Shown: positions 178-12,114 of the stretch, piece after piece
Position numbering within the stretch: position 1 is the first letter of the stretch
Layout of the letters: the number at the start of each line of letters is the position of its first letter
IMG/VR virus record: IMGVR_UViG_3300032665_000003
Source of the DNA: a virus
Taxonomy: Duplodnaviria > Heunggongvirae > Uroviricota > Caudoviricetes
Direction: 5' to 3' (one strand)
Length of the DNA stretch: 64,000 nt
Translations under genes and position numbers: made by a program
Notes under the pieces: model-generated
Told to the model about the DNA's origin: nothing
Databases searched by the model: none
Seen by the model: only the letters and a program-made list of their open reading frames with translations

Positions 178-317
178 TTAAAGGAGACCAGTATGAGATA
201 AAATTTTTAACCCAAATCGTGATATTGAAATTACCGTTTCAGAAGACGGTGAAAACGGTGCCACGATTTTCTATAATACTACTCAATCTCAACAACTCAC
301 CATCTAAGGAACTAAAA

Positions 318-551
318 ATGGCAAAGCTCGACAATAAGTCTATCGTCAATCAAATCTTTGAAGATTTGGAGAACTACCGTATTTTCTGTAGAGACTACGG
401 TTATCGATATGATGAGCGAGATTTATATAACAACAAGAGCTATATCTATCGGCAGTACCAAAAGACAGTTGCAAGCAAACCTGCAAAGAATCAATGGGAA
501 ATCGATGCAGAGAAGTTTAAGGAACGTGAACTTCTTAATACCCGTCGATAA
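318..551 (+). CDS. Hypothetical protein
   Basis: ORF 219-551; AAGGA RBS precedes ATG 318 (MAKLDNK). Confidence 0.7.
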   Translation: MAKLDNKSIVNQIFEDLENYRIFCRDYGYRYDERDLYNNKSYIYRQYQKTVASKPAKNQWEIDAEKFKERELLNTRR

Positions 552-611: not shown

Positions 612-1787
612 ATGCGTAAACTATACTATATGGGATTGGAGCCTTATAAGGCTCGGTACACTCTCCAATTGACATACTGGAATACTAGAGTCTTTGATCG
701 TAGGGGCATCGACTACATAGTGGTGCCGGGCGAAACGCTCGATAGCAGCAAGGCTATCGTAACTGGTCAAGTGCTAGACGCACATGGTCGTTCTTATTTC
801 GGTATGAGCCAGATGATGAATTTGGTAAAGCTGATGAAGGAAGGTAAGATCACACAAGAAGATGTTATCTACTTTGAAGATATGTTTCAGCCGGGAATTG
901 AGTCTCTTCCGTATATCATGGATCAGATTCCATATGACATGAGACCCAAAGTATATGTTCGCTGTCTAGCACAAACGATTGACCCTGATGATTTTGTTCA
1001 CGTATGGGGAATGGAACGCTGGATGGGGCATTACGAGAAGATGGTTAACGAATTTGTCGACGGTGTTCTTGCAACCAATGAAGAAATGGTTGCGCACATG
1101 GCCATTGCTGGTTGGACTGCTCCCATCTATAATATTTCCGGTCTTGCTTTTGGTAAGGATGAGGTGCAAAGTCGAGTTGAACGTATCAAGCCGTTCAATG
1201 ACCGTCGTATGCGAGTTGTTTTCTCTGCACGCTGGGATCAGGAGAAGCAACCTGACTTCTATCTCGATTTGATCGATGAATGGCACAAGCAACATCCGAG
1301 CAAAAATGTAGAATTCGTTATTTGTAGCGGCAGCAAGCTGAAAAGCAACAATGACAGCTACATGCAACGCACTCGCAAGATGATCGAAGATCGAAAATTA
1401 ACGCTATATGAAGATTTGGAAAAGAATCAATACTATGAGATTGTTAACGATAGCCGAGTAGTCTTCAACTGTGCATTACAAGATTGGGTATCCAACACTG
1501 TAAGCGAGGCTGATGCATTGGGTTGCAATGTGCTGTATCCCGCATATCGTTCGTTTCCTGAAACTTTTGCTAATGATCCTGAGCGTTTGTACATTCCGTG
1601 GTCTATTCAAGATGCGATCAACAAGCTAGATCCTTTGCTGCGTCGTCCACACGCAAATATGGGCAAGATCAGTGATTGGACCGATAAAACTGTGGATCGT
1701 ATTTGCGATATCCTTGAAGGAAACGGGGAGAAGTGGAATCGTGATCGTACGGATTATAGAAAATATACAAGAGAATCAAAGTACTAA
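612..1787 (+). CDS. GT-B fold glycosyltransferase (phage alpha-glucosyltransferase-like)
   Basis: 391 aa; FSARWDQEKQP and VSEADALGCNVLYP resemble GT4/GT-B C-terminal donor-binding motifs. Confidence 0.75.
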   Translation: MRKLYYMGLEPYKARYTLQLTYWNTRVFDRRGIDYIVVPGETLDSSKAIVTGQVLDAHGRSYFGMSQMMNLVKLMKEGKITQEDVIYFEDMFQPGIESLPYIMDQIPYDMRPKVYVRCLAQTIDPDDFVHVWGMERWMGHYEKMVNEFVDGVLATNEEMVAHMAIAGWTAPIYNISGLAFGKDEVQSRVERIKPFNDRRMRVVFSARWDQEKQPDFYLDLIDEWHKQHPSKNVEFVICSGSKLKSNNDSYMQRTRKMIEDRKLTLYEDLEKNQYYEIVNDSRVVFNCALQDWVSNTVSEADALGCNVLYPAYRSFPETFANDPERLYIPWSIQDAINKLDPLLRRPHANMGKISDWTDKTVDRICDILEGNGEKWNRDRTDYRKYTRESKY

Positions 1788-1849
1788 ATACATGTGTCAC
1801 ACAACGGTGACGCACTCAAAATTGACATCCGCGTAAGGAAGGATTTACT

Positions 1850-2530
1850 ATGTCATACAACAAAACCAAAACGGACCCCGATCTGGGTCGTAGCGTCCAT
1901 GAACATCTTGTTAAAGTCGGAGTAGAAACTCCGTTTAAAGATAACGGATTAGACCGTAAAGACAAGATTGAAATCATCGAACGAGATTTCGAACATATTA
2001 TGAAAACGTTAGGACTTGATCTAACAGACGACAGCTTGGCTGAAACGCCAAAGCGGGTTGCTAAAATGTACTGCAACGAAATATTTTGGGGTTTGGATTA
2101 TGATGCATTCCCGAAGTGTACGACTGTAGAGAATAAGATGAAATATAACGAAATGGTAGTAGAACGAAACGTGAACGTTCAATCTAACTGTGAGCATCAT
2201 TTTGTGGTCATCGATGGAGTTGCGACGGTCGCATATGTACCTAAGGATAAGGTTCTTGGGTTGTCTAAGATCAATCGCATTGTCGAATACTTCAGTAAGC
2301 GTCCTCAAATTCAAGAGAGACTGACTGAACAGGTATTTCATACTCTGCAATTTATTCTAGATACTGAGGATGTTGCAGTTATGATTGATGCACAGCACTA
2401 TTGCGTGAAATCGCGTGGTGTTGAGGATACCGGATCTTCAACGGTAACTGTTCGTTTAGGTGGTGGATTCAAGACTGACCCTGCTGCTAGAAATGAATTC
2501 CTAAGCATTGCAAGAATGGGAAAATGCTAA
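1850..2530 (+). CDS. folE: GTP cyclohydrolase I
   Basis: TPKRVAKMY, SNCEHHF, GLSKINRIV, RPQIQERLT, HYCVKSRG motifs. Confidence 0.97.
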   Translation: MSYNKTKTDPDLGRSVHEHLVKVGVETPFKDNGLDRKDKIEIIERDFEHIMKTLGLDLTDDSLAETPKRVAKMYCNEIFWGLDYDAFPKCTTVENKMKYNEMVVERNVNVQSNCEHHFVVIDGVATVAYVPKDKVLGLSKINRIVEYFSKRPQIQERLTEQVFHTLQFILDTEDVAVMIDAQHYCVKSRGVEDTGSSTVTVRLGGGFKTDPAARNEFLSIARMGKC

Positions 2531-2736
2531 ATCTAGATTTACATGGTGTACGACATCAAGACGTTGATGTTATGGTGGAAAACTTCATTCTGTTAAATCA
2601 GAAGGAGTTTCCGCTTACCATACTGTGTGGTAACAGTGTAAAAATGATTAAGCTAGCAGAAGCAGTCATAGAAAGAATTGGCTGTGAAGCAAAAATGTAT
2701 CGTTACGGTATCATAACCGTTGAACGATTTACGTAA
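2524..2736 (+). CDS. Small Smr-like domain protein
   Basis: LDLHG N-terminal motif and ILCGNS. Confidence 0.5.
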   Translation: MLNLDLHGVRHQDVDVMVENFILLNQKEFPLTILCGNSVKMIKLAEAVIERIGCEAKMYRYGIITVERFT

Positions 2737-2742
2737 GAAAGA

Positions 2743-3252
2743 ATGAAAATGACATTACAACCAGTATCATATGCATATACTAGTACAAAGGAATACCACG
2801 ATGCGTTTCCTTGTGCTTATCGGCAATGGAGAGCAGATTCTCATTGCAATTTGATTCACGGATATAGCTTTTCTATGAAGTTCTATTTTGGAACTAACGA
2901 GCTAGACGTTCGTAATTGGGCCGCCGATTATGGCGGTCTTAAGGAGCTAAAGAAGGTACTTGAAGACCAATTTGACCATACCACATTAGTTAGTTCTGAT
3001 GACCCGGAACTTGACTGGTATAAAGAAGCAGAAAAGCGTGGTCTTATGAAGTTAACTATACTCCCGAAATTGGGATGCGAAAGCTTAGCCGACATGCTTT
3101 ATAAGTATGTCAATGGAGTTTATATTCCTGAAATGTGGGGGCCTTCCGAGGCGGCCCGGCTGTGGTGCTATCGCGTCGAAGTGCGCGAGACTCAAAGCAA
3201 TATGGCATTCAGAGAAGGGCACCGTGAATGGAATGAGGACCTTTTTGCGTGA
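2743..3252 (+). CDS. queD: QueD-like 6-carboxytetrahydropterin synthase (T-fold)
   Basis: CAYRQWRADSHCNLIHGYS, DYGGLKELK, FDHTTL, CESLA, VEVRET; between folE and queE. Confidence 0.85.
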   Translation: MKMTLQPVSYAYTSTKEYHDAFPCAYRQWRADSHCNLIHGYSFSMKFYFGTNELDVRNWAADYGGLKELKKVLEDQFDHTTLVSSDDPELDWYKEAEKRGLMKLTILPKLGCESLADMLYKYVNGVYIPEMWGPSEAARLWCYRVEVRETQSNMAFREGHREWNEDLFA

Positions 3253-3413
3253 ATAAACTTTGGGGATTATGGGCTAAGGCTTTAGGAGAAAAGGCTTCTC
3301 CTTGTGATATAGAGTCTGATCGGATCGCTTGGATTCGAACAGTCTTAATAACCCAGTCTGTGATTACCAACATTTTTATTATCGAAAACGCAATTAGACA
3401 CTGGCATGGATAA
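3249..3413 (+). CDS. Small hypothetical protein (54 aa, below ORF-track cutoff)
   Basis: GTG start overlapping queD stop; MNKLWGLWAKALGEKASPCDIESDRIAWIRT...; fills gap to next gene. Confidence 0.65.
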   Translation: MNKLWGLWAKALGEKASPCDIESDRIAWIRTVLITQSVITNIFIIENAIRHWHG

Positions 3414-3864
3414 ATCTAACAGAATGCGAGCCGACTTGATGGTGCAGCAGCAAATAAAAGGACCATGGCAACACATGGTCGGAGTAATCATGTTGAACCA
3501 AACATCCAGGCAGCAAGTAAAGAAAGTATTACCTGAGTTTTTAACGAGTTGGGATACACCTGAGAAGTTGCTGTTAGCTATCGAAGACGATATCAAACGT
3601 GTAGTCTCTCCTTTAGGCATGACTAATGTTCGGGTAAAAAGATTGCTTGGAATGACCCGAGATTATTTGAATTGGGATCATGATGATGCTACAATGCTCT
3701 ATGGTATTGGTAAATACGGCAGCGACAGTTATGAAATATTTTTCAAAAATAACTATGCGGTTCAACCAACGGACAAAGAACTAATACGATACTTGTCGAG
3801 TAATCAGCATAAGTCCGAAAATGATAACTTGAAAGAAGAAAATGACAAAAATAAAGATCAGTGA
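3406..3864 (+). CDS. MBD4-like HhH-GPD DNA glycosylase
   Basis: PWQHMVGVIMLNQT, PLG, LYGIGKYGSDSYEIF and PTDKEL mirror MBD4 LHGIGKYGNDSYRIF...PEDHKL with catalytic Asp. Confidence 0.85.
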   Translation: MDKSNRMRADLMVQQQIKGPWQHMVGVIMLNQTSRQQVKKVLPEFLTSWDTPEKLLLAIEDDIKRVVSPLGMTNVRVKRLLGMTRDYLNWDHDDATMLYGIGKYGSDSYEIFFKNNYAVQPTDKELIRYLSSNQHKSENDNLKEENDKNKDQ

Positions 3865-4723
3865 GTTATTCTACTCAATTCAAGGCGAGGGAAGATATCA
3901 AGGCGTCCCGTCGGTATTTTTACGCACGTTTGGCTGTAACTTCAAATGTGCTGGTTTCGGAATGCCCAAAGGTGAGTTAAGTGACGAGGTTGATGCTATC
4001 GCCTTCGCTCATAAGAATACTCCTTATGAAAATTATGAATCTCTACCATTAGTCAGCACCGGGTGTGACAGTTATGCTAGCTGGGATCCTCGCTTCAAGG
4101 ACTTGTCTCCATTCAAGACGGTCAATGAAATAGTTGATGACATTATGGTAATACTACCGTTCAATGAATGGAGGCGAGAGCATCTTGTTATTACTGGCGG
4201 AGAACCATTGCTTACGTGGCAACGATCATATCCGTCTTTGTTGAGTCATCCCAAAATGAAGGGTCTGCGAGAAATCACCTTTGAGACAAATGGCACCCAG
4301 CCGCTTACTCATGAACTTAGACACTATCTAGAGGATTGGGTGTATGAAGGTGGAAAGTTAGGATTTGGTTCAGATGACAAGGATCGTGAGATTACGTTTT
4401 CTGTCAGTGCCAAACTAAGCTGCTCGGGCGAAGCACGCGAGAAGGCGATTCAGCCCGATATCGTATGCAGCTATGAGGAAGTTGGACACACGTATCTAAA
4501 GTTTGTTGTAGCTACAGAAAATGACATTGATGAGGCCTTAGAAACGACTCAAGTGTACCGTGATGCTGGATTTACGGGTGATGTTTATCTGATGCCAGTT
4601 GGTGGCGTAGAAAGTGTGTATCAACTGAATAACAAGAACGTGGCACTAGCAGCAATGAAGCATGGGCTTCGTTATAGTGATAGATTGCAGGTCACGCTCT
4701 GGAAGAACCAATGGGGAACGTAA
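3842..4723 (+). CDS. queE: QueE-like radical SAM 7-carboxy-7-deazaguanine synthase
   Basis: ELFYSIQGEG, VFLRTFGCNFKC, ITGGEPLL, ETNGT, VSAKLS, RYSDRLQ. Confidence 0.92.
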   Translation: MTKIKISELFYSIQGEGRYQGVPSVFLRTFGCNFKCAGFGMPKGELSDEVDAIAFAHKNTPYENYESLPLVSTGCDSYASWDPRFKDLSPFKTVNEIVDDIMVILPFNEWRREHLVITGGEPLLTWQRSYPSLLSHPKMKGLREITFETNGTQPLTHELRHYLEDWVYEGGKLGFGSDDKDREITFSVSAKLSCSGEAREKAIQPDIVCSYEEVGHTYLKFVVATENDIDEALETTQVYRDAGFTGDVYLMPVGGVESVYQLNNKNVALAAMKHGLRYSDRLQVTLWKNQWGT

Positions 4724-4957
4724 ATGTGGCATATGGTCAACACAGAGGCTAACCTAATTTGGATAAGGGGTGCAGATGAAATTCGATTAATGTTCTGTTT
4801 CTTTCCACACAAGTGCAGTCAAAGCGGAGATTGGATTTGGTTTAAAACTGCATATAGAATATCGCAGAGACTAACATATAATGAATTAGGAACTACCTAT
4901 AGGATAGATCGTTGGTACACGATTCAAGATTATCATCTATTGTTGGTTGCTAGATGA
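4724..4957 (+). CDS. Hypothetical protein
   Basis: 77-aa ORF abutting neighbours. Confidence 0.55.
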   Translation: MWHMVNTEANLIWIRGADEIRLMFCFFPHKCSQSGDWIWFKTAYRISQRLTYNELGTTYRIDRWYTIQDYHLLLVAR

Positions 4958-6291
4958 ACTTATATACTCACAGAATTGGCTTTTTGGTTAGTTCACAGAC
5001 CCTAATTCCGCATGGTGGAATTGGACAATTCGCAAAGAGTTTCTGTGAAATGATGAGTAGTCATGGCATAAAAGTTGATATCATTACAGATAAAGTTCCA
5101 CAGGGTCTTGCAGAAGATTTTGTTAAAGAGCTTAAGGTTAATGTAATTTATCCTAAGGTTCCGCTTCAATACACTGATCACAGTGCAATTTTTATGTATG
5201 AAGATAGCTATTGTTATGAACGCATGGCTAACTTTAGAGATGCAATCGTTAAAGCATTAACAACTAACATCTATGACGCATTTGTATGCAACACCTATGA
5301 AACTATACAAGTTGCCGCCGCATTAGGATTATCTGATTGTATTCAAAATATCGCTTACACTCACCTAGAATCACAGATTTTTAAAGATACTAAAAATCCT
5401 TTTTTGGACAGTGTCAATGAAATGATGCGTGAGCAGTTACAGTTGAATAGCCTTACTATTGGAACACAAAGTAGGTTTAATCAATCGACATTCTCTAACG
5501 CAGAGTATCTACCTATTCCTATATCAGAAAAAGGATTGCTCGAAAAATACAGCGGACCTCGCGAGGGTATTTTATTTGTAGGTAGATGGGAAGACGGAAA
5601 ACAGCCCGAACTTTTTATAGAATTGATAAATCAGGTTAAACTGCCGGCCCGTATCATGACCAGTGCCACCGGCGCTAAGAAGTTTGAAGATCGTCTGAAA
5701 ACTATCAATGCCAAATACGAAATTAAGGTAGGGATCATAGGACAAGAAAAAGTAGATTTCATTTCAGGGTCTAGGATAGCATTTAATCCTAGCACCGTAG
5801 AAAGCTATGGCATGGCTTTTTATGAACAGCACATACAATTACCTACATTTGTGCTTGAAAATCAGCGATGGACTAATAACTTTAACAAGAAATTCTTTTT
5901 TGAAACCAATAAGAAAACGATGGCTAATGACATCATAGTTGCTTATGAAAAGTACCCTACTGCAAATGATTGGTATCAAGTAGGATCACTATCCAATGCT
6001 ATAGCTATGGAATCAACGGTATTTCACAGCTGGAGTAACTGTATCAATAACTTTGTTGAAAAGAAGTCAAACAATAGCACTGCTAAGATATGCAATGAAA
6101 CCACTGTAAAGTATGCTGATTTTATAAAAGATTTAGGTAGAAAGATAATCTGCATCGATGACATAAAGTCTGTTCTAACCAATAAGCATAAGTTCAGAGT
6201 TATCTATACGGATAACGATACATACTTAACAAAAGACCCGATGTTCGAACCTAAGAAAGAACTATCGGGCCTAGATTTATTTGAATTTTAG
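4954..6291 (+). CDS. GT4-like glycosyltransferase
   Basis: PHGGIGQF, LFVGRWEDGKQPE, FNPSTVESYGMAFYE motifs. Confidence 0.8.
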   Translation: MNLYTHRIGFLVSSQTLIPHGGIGQFAKSFCEMMSSHGIKVDIITDKVPQGLAEDFVKELKVNVIYPKVPLQYTDHSAIFMYEDSYCYERMANFRDAIVKALTTNIYDAFVCNTYETIQVAAALGLSDCIQNIAYTHLESQIFKDTKNPFLDSVNEMMREQLQLNSLTIGTQSRFNQSTFSNAEYLPIPISEKGLLEKYSGPREGILFVGRWEDGKQPELFIELINQVKLPARIMTSATGAKKFEDRLKTINAKYEIKVGIIGQEKVDFISGSRIAFNPSTVESYGMAFYEQHIQLPTFVLENQRWTNNFNKKFFFETNKKTMANDIIVAYEKYPTANDWYQVGSLSNAIAMESTVFHSWSNCINNFVEKKSNNSTAKICNETTVKYADFIKDLGRKIICIDDIKSVLTNKHKFRVIYTDNDTYLTKDPMFEPKKELSGLDLFEF

Positions 6292-7490
6292 TGCATTAGC
6301 AGGAAGCTGTTTAGAACGTCACTTCTGTTTGCAGAGTCGTCACCGTCTCCCGGCATGACGATCACGTTGTACTTGTTTTTTTCGGAACTAACTGGGGTTG
6401 ACATCATTTCATCGTATGTTAGTATTGACTTTGGATCTACACTGTATTTTGCAGCAAGGCGTTCTTTGAATGCCTTGAGATCCTGTTTTGTTTTGAACTG
6501 CATACGACCTTTGGCGTCCTTCAGTAGTTTTGCTCCGTCTTTAGCAATAAGATCAGTGAATAATTCACGAGGAACAACTCTACTGTTTTTAGTAACAGCA
6601 AAATCGATTTCTTTTTCTTGAGAAGGTTTTGCACCCATTGAATAGTTAATCTTGAAGTTATCAGGCTTTTCTGATTTAGCAACCGATGCTAATTTTGTGT
6701 AAGCATAGAAGTCTACTTTAGGATACTTTTTAGCTAGTGAATATGCCATTGCAAGATATTGTGGAGAGAAGAAGTCACCTGCGTCGTGCCAACGAATTAC
6801 TAGTTTGGTCTTCTTGTCTTTCTTGTTAAACTTTTTGTCTGCTGCTTCAATTTCACTACCCATCATGTCCATAAATCCTGATGGATCATTATAGAGGAAG
6901 TTTAAAAGCTGTGACTGGTCCATCGATACATTCTTCCATTGTATGTAGCCGCCCTTCATAGCGTAACAATATGTTTGACATGCACCCGCACCCGGACAAG
7001 TGTCGATGATTACGAATTCTCCGTTGTCTTCATCGACCGCTAAGCCTTTAAGCGCAGGCAGACCTACATTGTAGAAGACGCTTGCAGTACCATCACTGTG
7101 TTGCATCTTTTCGTTCTGCTTGAGTACTTTGGCTGGCCTCTTAGTGATATCTGAACGTAGTTTCTTTAGATCGTATTTTTCGCCGCCTTCACCAACAATA
7201 GGAATGTTACTACCATGAATATATGGCTTTTTATACTTATCTGCTTTGCCTTTAGTTTTGCTTGTGATTGTATCGAGGTACTTTGTCATTTCCTCTTTGC
7301 CAAAAGGTCTCGCGGTCGCATCTAGTTTTGCTTCGTCAACCTCTTCCTCTTTCTCATCTGGAGTGAGGATTCCTGACATGTTTAGAAACTGTCCCAACGT
7401 CATGACATTCAAGTTATCCGAAAACGGAGGTGTTCCCTTGACTTCTCCGGTGTTTTCATTTATTATGTCTATAATTCTACGAATGTCCAT
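6288..7490 (-). CDS. GP88-like (radical-SAM-related) protein
   Basis: TCPGAGACQTYCYA Cys cluster, RWHDAGDF, FYAYTK; late promoter GATAAATA at 7524-7517; start chosen at MDIRRII. Confidence 0.65.
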   Translation of the reverse strand: MDIRRIIDIINENTGEVKGTPPFSDNLNVMTLGQFLNMSGILTPDEKEEEVDEAKLDATARPFGKEEMTKYLDTITSKTKGKADKYKKPYIHGSNIPIVGEGGEKYDLKKLRSDITKRPAKVLKQNEKMQHSDGTASVFYNVGLPALKGLAVDEDNGEFVIIDTCPGAGACQTYCYAMKGGYIQWKNVSMDQSQLLNFLYNDPSGFMDMMGSEIEAADKKFNKKDKKTKLVIRWHDAGDFFSPQYLAMAYSLAKKYPKVDFYAYTKLASVAKSEKPDNFKINYSMGAKPSQEKEIDFAVTKNSRVVPRELFTDLIAKDGAKLLKDAKGRMQFKTKQDLKAFKERLAAKYSVDPKSILTYDEMMSTPVSSEKNKYNVIVMPGDGDDSANRSDVLNSFLLMH

Positions 7491-7543
7491 ATATAATCCC
7501 ATTGTTAAGTATAAACTATTTATCATTCATCTGGAGAAGTACG

Positions 7544-8131
7544 ATTAACATTTTCTATGTAAACTCTGATCCCAAGCTTGCTGCGCAGTCTATGGTCGAT
7601 CGGCACGTGGTCAAAATGATCATCGAGACAGCACAATTGCTATCAACTGCCCATCGTATGCTCGACGGGGTTCAGGAAGCTCAAAAGACGGCCCGAGGCC
7701 GTAACATTAAGCGATATGTTCTATCAGATAGCCGCGAGGATCATCTGTACAAAAGTACCCACGCAAATCACCCGTCTGCTGTTTGGGCCCGGGAATCATT
7801 GGATAATTACAAGTGGCTACATGCACATTTGATCGCATTAGGTGATGAGTATACTCATCGTTATGGCAAGCAGCATTCTACTATGAAAAGCGTAGCTCGG
7901 ATTCTTGAGACTACCCCAACGAACTTGCGCCGAAACGCAATGACTAAAATGCCGTCTTGCATGGCTGTCGAATTTATTATCAGTGATGATCCTATCGTCA
8001 ACTATCGAAATTATTACAACAAAGGTAAGAAAGACTTGCATCGCTGGTCTAATCGAGAGCCTCCTGTTTGGATTGACGGTGCTGTTGTTTCTCAACGGGT
8101 TAAGGACAAGACGATATATACTACTATATAA
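7544..8131 (+). CDS. Pyrimidine-dimer DNA glycosylase (DenV/Pyr_excise-like); possible ATT start
   Basis: NIFYV...HVVKMIIETAQLLSTAH, THANHPSAVWARES, EYTHRYGKQH; GGAG 7 nt before in-frame ATT at 7544. Confidence 0.8.
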   Translation: MNIFYVNSDPKLAAQSMVDRHVVKMIIETAQLLSTAHRMLDGVQEAQKTARGRNIKRYVLSDSREDHLYKSTHANHPSAVWARESLDNYKWLHAHLIALGDEYTHRYGKQHSTMKSVARILETTPTNLRRNAMTKMPSCMAVEFIISDDPIVNYRNYYNKGKKDLHRWSNREPPVWIDGAVVSQRVKDKTIYTTI

Positions 8132-10363: not shown

Positions 10364-10791
10364 CATTAGTTCTGTATATCGCAGAAATAAAAGGGGTTGA
10401 CACCTATACCAAACCTGGAATTACAACAGATTTATACAGTCGCACCAATGCATATACTAAAATCGGAAATACAGCAGTAATACATTTTTTAGCTATTGCT
10501 CAGCCAGGTTTTGAGGGGCAGATCAGAACCTTAGAGGAAGACGGGAAAACCTACCTAAAACCCCATAGGTCTAGATTTAATGGACTAGATCGTACAGAAT
10601 ATATAAGTGTCAGTAAAACTGGCATCACACCATCTGTGGTAGAAGAATATTTTCGCAAAAAAATTGAAGGTATTCCATCTGTACATATTGTAAAAAAGGA
10701 ATATCTTCCTCTTAACATAGAAAGTCCTGACCTTAAGAATTTTATTACACTCGCACTTAAGTATCCAGATAAATATCTTGAAAATTTTTAG
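10360..10791 (+). CDS. GIY-YIG/T5orf172-like protein
   Basis: LYIAE...TKPGITTDLYSR pattern. Confidence 0.5.
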   Translation: MTLVLYIAEIKGVDTYTKPGITTDLYSRTNAYTKIGNTAVIHFLAIAQPGFEGQIRTLEEDGKTYLKPHRSRFNGLDRTEYISVSKTGITPSVVEEYFRKKIEGIPSVHIVKKEYLPLNIESPDLKNFITLALKYPDKYLENF

Positions 10792-11154
10792 TAGTTGGAG
10801 TAAAACTGGCATCACACCATCTGTGGTAGAAGATATCGCAGTTTGTTTTGCTGCTAATAAAAGCTGCTGAGATAAACCTAAACTTCTATAATTAGGATGA
10901 ACCCAAAGACCGCGGCTCCTAAACTCTAGTGGACTAGATAAATGTCCGCTGTTAACGGCAATTAAATCTCCCCCATCGTAAATTCCCCAAAAATAAACTG
11001 GATTACTGAATATACCCATGTCGTATGGTTCAGCTTTTGGCTTAGGCCAAGTCATAGCACTATGTGTTTCAATTTCTGACATTCTGTCGGGCCATAGTTC
11101 ATTTTTCCAAATAGGAAGAATCTGAGTGAAAGTTATAACCTGAACATCTAGCAT
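10585..11154 (-). CDS. GNAT acetyltransferase, C-terminus apparently disrupted at ~10833
   Basis: WPDR..IETHSAM, VNSGH, FRSRGLWVHPNYRSLGLSQQLL; paralogue of 60628-61077 but lacks its CWSYPR..GF end. Confidence 0.7.
   Translation of the reverse strand: MLDVQVITFTQILPIWKNELWPDRMSEIETHSAMTWPKPKAEPYDMGIFSNPVYFWGIYDGGDLIAVNSGHLSSPLEFRSRGLWVHPNYRSLGLSQQLLLAAKQTAISSTTDGVMPVLLQLLKIFKIFIWILKCECNKILKVRTFYVKRKIFLFYNMYRWNTFNFFAKIFFYHRWCDASFTDTYIFCTI
10612..10833. repeat. 35-bp perfect direct repeat (10612-10646 and 10799-10833)
   Basis: agtaaaactggcatcacaccatctgtggtagaaga occurs twice, 187 bp apart. Confidence 0.95.
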
Positions 11155-11163
11155 ATGAGTATC

Positions 11164-12114
11164 CTACGTGCCTACAGTTAATTTCTGGTTTGAGTAGAGT
11201 TCGTCTTTGTACAAATACACTACCATATCATTATATTTAACTTGTTCTGATAATTTATATCGAAATAGTATATCAAATGCTCTTTTACTAGGCATATTAC
11301 CATATCGAATGCGTTCTATAGGTGTTAACGTATTATGTTCGTCATAATAGTCTTTGATTAACTCAAATCCGGTAAATTTGGTTTTCTGTGGAATAACGGG
11401 TATACCTGCTTTATGAAGTATTGATATTTTATTATTATACTTATGAAGCATTTCTATATGCCACTCTAAGCCTTTAGTTTGGTCCTCTAGAGGATCATAC
11501 ATAAACTGAGCCATAGCGGCAGCTAACTCTGCGTCGTGTAGAAGGAAGAACGGAATTACATTAGTGTTTACGTCAGCGTATCTCTTAAGACCCAAAACAG
11601 TATAGGTATAGCATCCTTCTTGAATAAAGTTTCCGCTGAATATATTTGTACCAGATACCATTTCGGCTATTTTCATATGAGAGCATATATGAGGACTTGT
11701 GCAACGATATTTGGCAGCATAATCGTAAAGATGGTTCTCTAGAAAGTCAAAGATATTAAGCTGTTTGTAAGTTATAGGTATGTTGAATTTATTTGCAAAT
11801 TCTTTTAACTGTTCAAGATCATGTTCGTTGTAAACCTTTCCAGTATTGTCTACATATTCTATAGAGATACAATTAAAAGGAACACCAGAATGCATCCAAC
11901 ACCAAAGCATAGTCTGACTGTCGGAACCACCGCTTACCATAAGATTATATGGTGCAGGGTACTGGTTAGAAATATCGCGTATGACTCTCTTAGCGATTTC
12001 AGTTATTTTATTGTACGTTGGGGTAAGATTAGATAGGTCTATGTGTAACTGCTTTTCTTCATGAAAAACATCAGAGAATTCGCTTCCCCAACCCATCCTA
12101 GTCCATTGGTGCAC
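11164..12114 (-). CDS. PP-loop (adenine nucleotide alpha-hydrolase-like) ATPase
   Basis: MVSGGSDSQ PP-loop; no QueC C-terminal Cys cluster. Confidence 0.6.
   Translation of the reverse strand: MHQWTRMGWGSEFSDVFHEEKQLHIDLSNLTPTYNKITEIAKRVIRDISNQYPAPYNLMVSGGSDSQTMLWCWMHSGVPFNCISIEYVDNTGKVYNEHDLEQLKEFANKFNIPITYKQLNIFDFLENHLYDYAAKYRCTSPHICSHMKIAEMVSGTNIFSGNFIQEGCYTYTVLGLKRYADVNTNVIPFFLLHDAELAAAMAQFMYDPLEDQTKGLEWHIEMLHKYNNKISILHKAGIPVIPQKTKFTGFELIKDYYDEHNTLTPIERIRYGNMPSKRAFDILFRYKLSEQVKYNDMVVYLYKDELYSNQKLTVGT

Follow-up and report, generated by a model that had tools for sequence, protein, structure and literature searches.

The locus described here raises the question of how a phage that encodes the early steps of 7-deazaguanine synthesis, with no queC and no dpdA recognisable beside them, could place such a base in its DNA, and what part the two glycosyltransferases that bound the gene set might play. 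It lies at 612–6291 of a 64,000-nucleotide stretch (the window), which is the minus strand of bases 4954–68953 of the 258,859-bp IMG/VR record IMGVR_UViG_3300032665_000003; the record is ~73% complete (CheckV) and its source is a T4-like jumbo phage by annotation. Nine co-directional open reading frames (ORFs) on the plus strand occupy the locus, with intergenic gaps of −23 to +62 nt. An earlier note, made from the sequence alone, had listed them as a tightly packed set on one strand, and all nine are real; its identification of FolE, QueD, QueE and an MBD4-like HhH-GPD glycosylase was borne out by Pfam, PHROG and MBD4 matches. It had also supposed that no transglycosylase was present and that a new insertion route was therefore in use. 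This does not hold: the cluster extends upstream past the first base of the window on the same strand, to DpdL and, farther out, to a 516-residue protein (u516) with a predicted tRNA-guanine transglycosylase (TGT) fold, the two lying 0.6–2.8 kb beyond the window edge. We think it probable that these genes make up the downstream two thirds of a module for 7-deazaguanine modification of DNA, of the DpdL type, in which u516 would exchange the base and the first glycosyltransferase, GT1, would add a sugar.

The DpdL of Cellulophaga phage phiST (CGPG_00067) matches an ORF on the cluster strand 0.6–1.0 kb upstream of the window (E = 2e-12). This ORF matches phrog_17812 (E = 1.6e-31), the PHROG to which phiST DpdL also belongs, and carries the DpdL signature LxxxHRHxF, as LAHPHRHIF. 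It has the traits by which the class is recognised, namely a T-fold paralogue of QueD in which LxxxHRHxF replaces CxxxHGH, in the company of FolE, QueD and QueE and without QueC. Unlike DpdL, the QueD of the window keeps the catalytic Cys (CxxxHGY), as do the QueDs of phiST and of phages ACP17 and BUCT-ZZ01. DpdL is the proposed 7-carboxy-7-deazaguanine (CDG) decarboxylase of a QueC-less pathway to 7-deazaguanine in DNA (dDG), of which the absence of QueC is a defining trait (Hutinet 2023, PMC10516641). QueC would be unneeded here because DpdL is proposed to decarboxylate CDG to 7-deazaguanine; the earlier note's report that queC is missing stands, with Pfam QueC (PF06508) finding no match across the 259-kb record at its ~73% completeness. 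We place the module among the known DpdL/DpdA3-type deazaguanine systems.

A PP-loop ATPase encoded at 11164–12114 on the minus strand, the sole PP-loop protein near the cluster, was considered as a cryptic QueC and rejected: it shares just SGGxDS with E. coli QueC, is unrelated to the PP-loop proteins of phages BUDD and BCSR5 described below, and is absent from the 80 related loci that we analysed. Together with a GNAT acetyltransferase (window 10585–12114, minus strand), this SGGSDS protein belongs to a late operon that includes an S8 protease–S74 fusion. As for DpdL itself, in Vibrio phage Bakedbeans it forms the C-terminal third of the 383-aa gp176 (L104:9221–10372), whose N-terminal ~270 residues have no Pfam match; this possible fusion may hint at a DpdL partner.

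The candidate transglycosylase is harder to see. As a single sequence u516 matches nothing in Pfam, in PHROGs or among PDB sequences, and Pfam TGT, the phiST DpdA3 PHROGs (phrog_20335 and phrog_19058) and phrog_10773 find nothing in the whole genome. The absence of DpdA that was first read from these failed hidden Markov model (HMM) searches was overturned by profile and structure work. An exhaustive search placed u516 in a family of 825 representative clusters, and a profile of 103 full-length members was run against ~70 reference cluster proteins. Only five were matched: ACP17 gp123 (5.6e-11; hhalign 96.7%), a 416-aa protein of BUCT-ZZ01, a BUDD protein annotated by its depositors as 'queuine tRNA-ribosyltransferase', a 446-aa protein of BCSR5, and phiST DpdA3 (2.6e-4; hhalign 84%, E = 7e-6). 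All others had E > 0.8.

The AlphaFold (AF2) model of u516 (pLDDT 90.5, pTM 0.90) points the same way. Its best 50 Foldseek matches in the PDB are all TGT or QTRT1 (E = 3e-7), and among those in BFVD are TGTs of phages as well as M4SLA5, the model of phiST DpdA3 (E = 3e-3). VIA-align superposition on Thermotoga maritima TGT gave Z 19.4 and an rmsd of ~4.5 over ~305 residues (307), with Z 18–19 for Zymomonas mobilis TGT and archaeosine TGT. When the u516 family was aligned to E. coli Tgt by hhalign (E = 7e-6, 187 columns), GD104SGGFQ fell on TD89SGGFQ, LD149IPS on FD143ECT and TFD303CASP on MFD264CVMP, these three Asp residues being catalytic or substrate-binding, with D264 the covalent nucleophile; among 101 family sequences D149 and D303 never vary and D104 almost never does. 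The distance is too great for sequence HMMs alone: a HMMER profile of the family finds no TGT among PDB sequences, and only one of the 101 members touches Pfam TGT, weakly. We regard u516 as a candidate DNA transglycosylase that has the TGT fold and is related to DpdA3, but not as a proven DpdA3.

The inference that DpdA was lacking thus arose from the window edge together with the sequence divergence of u516. That no dpdA or queC is recognisable within the window is literally correct, but misleading, since the cluster runs on upstream of its first base; and the search of the rest of the genome that the earlier note had proposed returned no Pfam TGT or QueC match but did yield u516 by profile and structure. 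The u516-type family also has a place outside phages or in mobile elements: on Logan contigs L090 and L091, members of ~30% identity adjoin integrases and an Eco57I/N6-methylase-like gene.

Both glycosyltransferases give GT-B Pfam matches that fall below the curated cut-offs, those of the second, GT2, being to Glycos_transf_1 (5.7e-5) and Glyco_transf_5 (3.8e-3). The AF2 model of GT1, folded from 20 sequences, has a pLDDT of 79, and its top Foldseek matches are MshA, glycogen synthase, PimB', OtsA and BshA (E = 5e-10 to 1e-9, TM ~0.6). Arg207, Lys212 and Glu299, which correspond to the donor-binding residues of the class, are invariant across five lineages. The model clearly places GT1 among retaining GT4-type GT-B glycosyltransferases with a two-Rossmann fold. 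GT1 is represented by thousands of sequences from the environment, the longest contigs reaching ~360 kb. GT2 is 39% identical to the glycosyltransferase that adjoins FolE in BUCT-ZZ01.

We then compared related loci. An alignment of DpdL retrieved > 589 loci from IMG/VR, of which the best 80, 61–73% identical to this DpdL, were analysed. Their order, with variable genes in brackets, is clamp, (u122), u516, (ACP17-gp122-like), DpdL, w110, GT1, FolE, (70-aa), QueD, (54-aa, phosphoribosyltransferase (PRTase)/HhH-GPD), QueE, (GT2/w150). GT1 stands beside DpdL in all 73 informative loci. These 80 loci form one clade, in which synteny alone could reflect common descent, and the informative comparison is with distant lineages in which gene order is shuffled. 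Counting this clade, seven lineages have GT1 beside DpdL or the TGT-like gene. The order is QueE, PRTase, QueD, FolE, GT2, TGT-like, DpdL, GT1 in BUCT-ZZ01; QueD, FolE, gp122, TGT-like, GT1, DpdL, QueE in ACP17; GT1, TGT-like, DpdL, QueE in BUDD, X1 and BCSR5; clamp, TGT-like gp168, GT1 gp167, DpdL gp166, PRTase, QueE in Pseudomonas phage PA5oct; and clamp, HhH-like 'glycosylase', DpdL, GT1, FolE, QueE in Sinorhizobium phage Phosso, whose TGT-like gene is 170 kb away. GT1 is a frequent and tightly linked, but not universal, partner of DpdL. The idea that a glycosyltransferase is tied to the deazapurine genes is supported for GT1; of the 31 loci extending as far as QueE, 12 have GT2.

Two of these lineages show further features. 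In Phosso, the distant u516-family gene (L102, 323213–324733) has one in-frame TAA within the match, and the slot next to DpdL holds an unrelated 177-aa HhH-like protein, the annotated 'glycosylase'. In BUDD and BCSR5 (L086:7380–8953 and L087:7158–8996), a PAPS-reductase-like PP-loop protein, a PIG-L-like deacetylase (a weak match, E = 4.7e-5) and a 143–155-aa protein are inserted between FolE and GT1. Because the MshA and BshA pathways are paired with PIG-L-family deacetylases, the PIG-L-like gene suggests that the product may be tailored by a similar logic, in which an N-acetylhexosamine would be added and then deacetylated.

Among the closest known systems is that of phiST (FolE, QueD, QueE, DpdL and DpdA3), in which DNA carries 100% dDG (PMC10516641). 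It resembles the present module in lacking QueC, in having an LxxxHRHxF DpdL of the same PHROG and a divergent TGT-superfamily protein nearby, and in adjoining a DNA polymerase gene. It differs in that DpdA3 has 259 residues and u516 has 516, in that the DpdA3 PHROG misses u516, in having no GT1 or GT2, and in including MazG. PA5oct (Wroclawvirus) is another, with a split PolB accompanied by a homing endonuclease, a clamp, DpdL (gp166), QueE (gp162), a u516-family protein (gp168, E = 9e-160) and GT1 (gp167, 4e-45). It differs in host and clade, in having a PRTase (gp163), and in lacking the MBD4-like glycosylase and GT2 in the stretch gp162–gp168. The virion DNA of PA5oct is refractory to five G-containing restriction enzymes, and END nucleases directed at modified G act against it; a modified G was inferred by the authors of that work (PMC12191111).

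Other known systems share parts of the scheme. In phages with DpdA1 or DpdA2 (9g, CAjan, Vibrio nt-1/VH7D) and in the bacterial Dpd system, a TGT-superfamily enzyme swaps G in DNA (PMC6884629, PMC10164549). These, too, obtain the 7-deazaguanine from GTP by FolE, QueD and QueE, but there QueC makes preQ0 and Pfam TGT recognises the transglycosylases, whereas here DpdL is present and the transglycosylase is recognisable by profile and structure only. The glucosylation of hydroxymethylcytosine in T4 likewise sets two GT-B enzymes beside a pathway that replaces a base. The likeness is one of logic only: the base is another, its hydroxymethyl acceptor has no counterpart in 7-deazaguanine, and no T4 glucosyltransferase is among the best 50 PDB matches listed for GT1, which resembles GT4 enzymes (MshA, BshA).

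The explanation that we favour, and that we hold to be probable as a whole, is as follows. FolE, QueD and QueE, assigned by homology, would convert GTP to CDG, which is established chemistry for these families. DpdL would then decarboxylate CDG to 7-deazaguanine, the step proposed in the literature, and u516, to judge from its fold, motifs and context, would exchange guanine in phage DNA for the deazapurine by means of its conserved Asp nucleophile. GT1 would most likely take a sugar from a nucleoside diphosphate sugar and attach it to the deazapurine or to a compound derived from it, whether already in DNA or shortly ahead of insertion; in some genomes GT2 may lengthen or alter this sugar. 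The 70-aa ORF and the other small ORFs would be accessory, as would the MBD4-like glycosylase. Relative to the known DpdL/DpdA3 systems there would be two novelties, a long TGT-fold family missed by standard HMMs and a conserved GT4 enzyme.

Several observations weigh against this explanation. DpdL, DpdA3 and the longer TGT-like family are putative enzymes, and heterologous tests failed, expression yielding no dDG (PMC10516641). phiST makes dDG without GT1, and phages RHph_I1_18, Bakedbeans and Ahp1 similarly have DpdL and no GT1 nearby (within 10 kb for these three). The CxCxxC...H zinc motif of TGTs is not evident in u516, for which the alignment stops short of the zinc subdomain and the family consensus has a single conserved Cys in the zinc-site region. 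Neither the phiST DpdA3 PHROG nor Pfam TGT recognises u516, and distant members of its family occur without que genes nearby. O-glycosylation needs a hydroxyl, and none is obvious in plain 7-deazaguanine. The record, moreover, is only ~73% complete.

The basis for glycosyl transfer to a DNA base by GT1 and GT2 is gene neighbourhood, which makes it plausible but unproven, and we put forward only tentatively the proposal that they glycosylate the inserted 7-deazapurine, or a DpdL-derived variant, to give sugar-bearing 7-deazaguanine in DNA. A possible precedent exists in natural products such as huimycin and dapiramicin, in which sugars are carried on the exocyclic amine of 7-deazaguanines. No paper came to our notice that connects a glycosyltransferase with the modification of DNA by deazaguanine, and the string 'glycosyl' is absent from the description of the DpdL pathway (PMC10516641).

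The alternative that survives best, although we consider it unlikely, is that the pathway is the same and the final base is plain dDG, with GT1 and GT2 acting on another base, an intermediate, a carrier or a target other than DNA. Such an arrangement would suit a base without a side-chain hydroxyl, the complete replacement by dDG that phiST reaches without a glycosyltransferase, the small-molecule acceptors, rather than DNA, used by the best structural matches of GT1 (MshA, BshA and OtsA), and the position of GT2 relatives in BUDD, X1 and Erwinia jumbo phages, which lie away from que genes. It fits less well with the adjacency of GT1 to DpdL or the TGT-like gene in seven shuffled lineages and 73/73 loci, or with the PIG-L-like deacetylase and PP-loop enzyme of BUDD and BCSR5, which point to tailoring of a sugar-bearing product.

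A pre-replicative route seems to us distinctly improbable. Here the PRTase would make a deazapurine nucleotide that is reduced, phosphorylated and incorporated by the polymerase, and the TGT-like protein would act elsewhere, for example on tRNA. A PRTase gene is present in the BUCT-ZZ01 and PA5oct clusters and in ~18/80 loci, and phiST has one too; the module always adjoins DNA polymerase and clamp genes; and complete replacement, as in phiST, would be typical of nucleotide-level routes. The present genome, however, has no PRTase homologue and yet its module is whole. The TGT-like gene, with the Asp of covalent catalysis kept, is found in 77/80 loci, that is, in all those that reach far enough upstream, and the PRTase is equally well explained as salvaging the guanine freed by base exchange.

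The earlier note had further suggested that the MBD4-like glycosylase takes the place of DpdA, either by opening abasic sites at which bases are exchanged or by acting selectively on host DNA that is unmodified. This we regard as very improbable indeed: its gene lies inside the cluster with an overlap into queE, directly follows a PRTase that could salvage released bases in five relatives, and has an Xp12 relative that also lies beside a base-modification module, but it is found in only 7/80 loci, is absent from ACP17, BUCT-ZZ01, BUDD, BCSR5 and PA5oct, and accompanies a TGT-fold enzyme with intact catalytic Asp residues, while no enzyme is known to insert a free base at an abasic site.

In the explanation that we favour, this glycosylase would most plausibly repair U:G or T:G-type mismatches opposite modified G. 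Its HhH-GPD score is 30.9 bits against a Pfam cut-off of 26.2, phmmer aligns ~115 residues to the human and mouse MBD4 glycosylase domains (E = 1.2e-16), and its C-terminal catalytic Asp is aligned (...PED... with ...PTD... of MBD4), as expected for the HhH-GPD class. Like mammalian MBD4 it is of the HhH-GPD type without an iron–sulphur cluster; it differs in lacking the methyl-CpG-binding domain and in having Gln for the arginine of LNRTS (LNQTS). The ORF overlaps the start of queE by 23 nt. Its nearest named relatives are in cyanophage S-TIM54, where the protein, 48% identical, has no deazapurine genes nearby, and in the Xp12 group. In Xp12, whose DNA contains 5-methylcytosine, the neighbouring genes encode a thymidylate-synthase-like protein, dCMP deaminase and DHFR. 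The supposed tie between glycosylase and cluster did not withstand the co-occurrence check across phages, in which the gene proved to be unlinked to the cluster elsewhere. Its low frequency and these two contexts argue for an accessory role in repair or surveillance rather than in base insertion. Host proteins of the HhH family sense or excise 7-deazaguanines (10.1101/2025.10.29.685425; PMC12191111), so the glycosylase may alternatively have a counter-defence or competitor-directed role.

To our knowledge, all known sugar modifications of phage DNA are on pyrimidines. A sugar on 7-deazaguanine in DNA would, if confirmed, be the first glycosylated purine known in any natural DNA, and it would occur in freshwater jumbo phages of a very abundant clade as well as in cultivable phages such as PA5oct, ACP17 and BUCT-ZZ01. 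The locking of GT1 to the deazaguanine pathway in seven lineages points to a sugar-decorated purine or, failing that, to a dDG pathway with a step not yet described. For annotation, phages that seem by HMM to be without DpdA (this clade, ACP17, BUCT-ZZ01, BUDD, BCSR5 and PA5oct) do carry a long, highly divergent TGT-fold enzyme. PA5oct is both cultivable and genetically tractable, so the question is directly testable, and the answer bears on evasion of restriction, CRISPR, and the glycosylase and END-nuclease defences against modified G that were described recently.

Table 1. Features of the cluster and its surroundings. Positions are in the window unless marked; L003 is the stretch upstream of the window. 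The last column gives occurrence among the 80 related loci.
Feature	Position	Strand	Basis or remark	Loci
Family-B DNA polymerase, split into 559-aa and 414-aa ORFs	L003:4000-7838 (genome 72953-76791)
u516, 516 aa	L003:1287-2837 (~1.3-2.8 kb upstream of window)	− in L003 (cluster strand)	predicted TGT fold	77/80 (other 3 end just upstream of DpdL)
DpdL	genome 69528-70121	cluster strand	phrog_17812
Homing-endonuclease 5' end, NUMOD3-type	1-136	−	ORF 2-136, open at window edge
w110, small conserved protein	219-551	+	probably ~77 aa from ATG at 318	72/80
GT1, GT4-type GT-B glycosyltransferase	612-1787	+	AF2 model, Foldseek	73/80 (other 7 end within ~1.2 kb after DpdL)
FolE, GTP cyclohydrolase I	1850-2530	+	PF01227, E 3.4e-62; phrog_2197, 1.6e-74
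70-aa ORF with N-terminal LDLHG motif, accessory	2524-2736	+		6/80
QueD (CPH4 synthase), phage type, CxxxHGY	2743-3252	+	PTPS Pfam, 8.5e-16; phrog_2389, 1.2e-36
54-aa ORF, accessory	3249-3413	+	phrog_1679, E 1.5e-19	4/80
MBD4-like HhH-GPD DNA glycosylase, catalytic domain only, 152 aa	3406-3864	+	Pfam HhH-GPD, 3.7e-7	7/80 (5 directly after PRTase)
QueE (CDG synthase, radical SAM)	3842-4723	+	phrog_2076, 1.6e-54; Radical_SAM, 2e-5
77-aa ORF	4724-4957	+	weak phrog_7749 match, 3.6e-5	1/80
GT2, second GT-B glycosyltransferase, accessory	4954-6291	+	Pfam below cut-offs	12/80 (12/31 of loci reaching QueE)
GP88-like protein	6288-7526	−	PF17338	3/80
Pyr_excise protein	7502-8131	+	24.9 bits, cut-off 23
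PRTase			no homologue in this genome	~18/80

Positions and match scores for the cluster and its surroundings are collected in Table 1. No named phage was matched by the region in Megablast; at the protein level, QueE is 44% identical to that of BUCT-ZZ01. The 70-aa ORF had been labelled 'Smr-like', a name that could not be sustained: beyond the LDLHG motif it has no Pfam match at E 0.01, no PHROG match and no PDB sequence match at E 10. w110 also lacks a Pfam or PHROG match, and lies at the same position, between DpdL and GT1, wherever it occurs among the 80 loci. In relatives it directly follows DpdL; here a NUMOD3 homing-endonuclease gene (NUMOD3 E = 1e-4), which spans the window start and runs on as L003:3–632 (+), sits between the two on the opposite strand. 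Relatives are without this endonuclease gene at that position.

Upstream, the order is the split polymerase, a 243-aa protein (u243), a 122-aa protein (u122), u516 and DpdL. u243 had been considered as a candidate of about the size of DpdA3 and was rejected, as it is a gp45-type sliding clamp. Between the two halves of the polymerase gene lies an HNH/PvuRts1I-like endonuclease gene on the other strand, and the polymerase of PA5oct is interrupted likewise, by a Hef-like homing endonuclease. u122 and the 132-aa ACP17-gp122-like protein appear to be nearly mutually exclusive, the former preceding u516 in 44 loci and the latter following it in 29; this genome has u122, and a single locus (L010, among L006–L085) has both.

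Elsewhere in the genome, a thymidylate-synthase homologue (genome 211728–212615, 1e-104 against Pfam) was considered and fits an ordinary ThyA rather than a hydroxymethylase that would supply a T4-style glycosyltransferase substrate. Downstream of GT2, and divergent from the cluster, the GP88-like protein carries the motif CPGAGACQTYC. It was considered as a hidden DpdA or an anti-END inhibitor and rejected. It has no link to the u516 profile and a place in only three loci, and PF17338 has no member in PA5oct, the phage whose gp52 is homologous to anti-END1; Pseudomonas phage 14-1 has an anti-END1 protein also called 'gp88', but the two are unrelated and the shared name is a coincidence. The Pyr_excise protein beyond it, whose match is to T4 endonuclease V-like pyrimidine-dimer glycosylases, is a second glycosylase-like gene product near the module, and a 42%-identical homologue is encoded at the edge of the BUCT-ZZ01 deazaguanine cluster.

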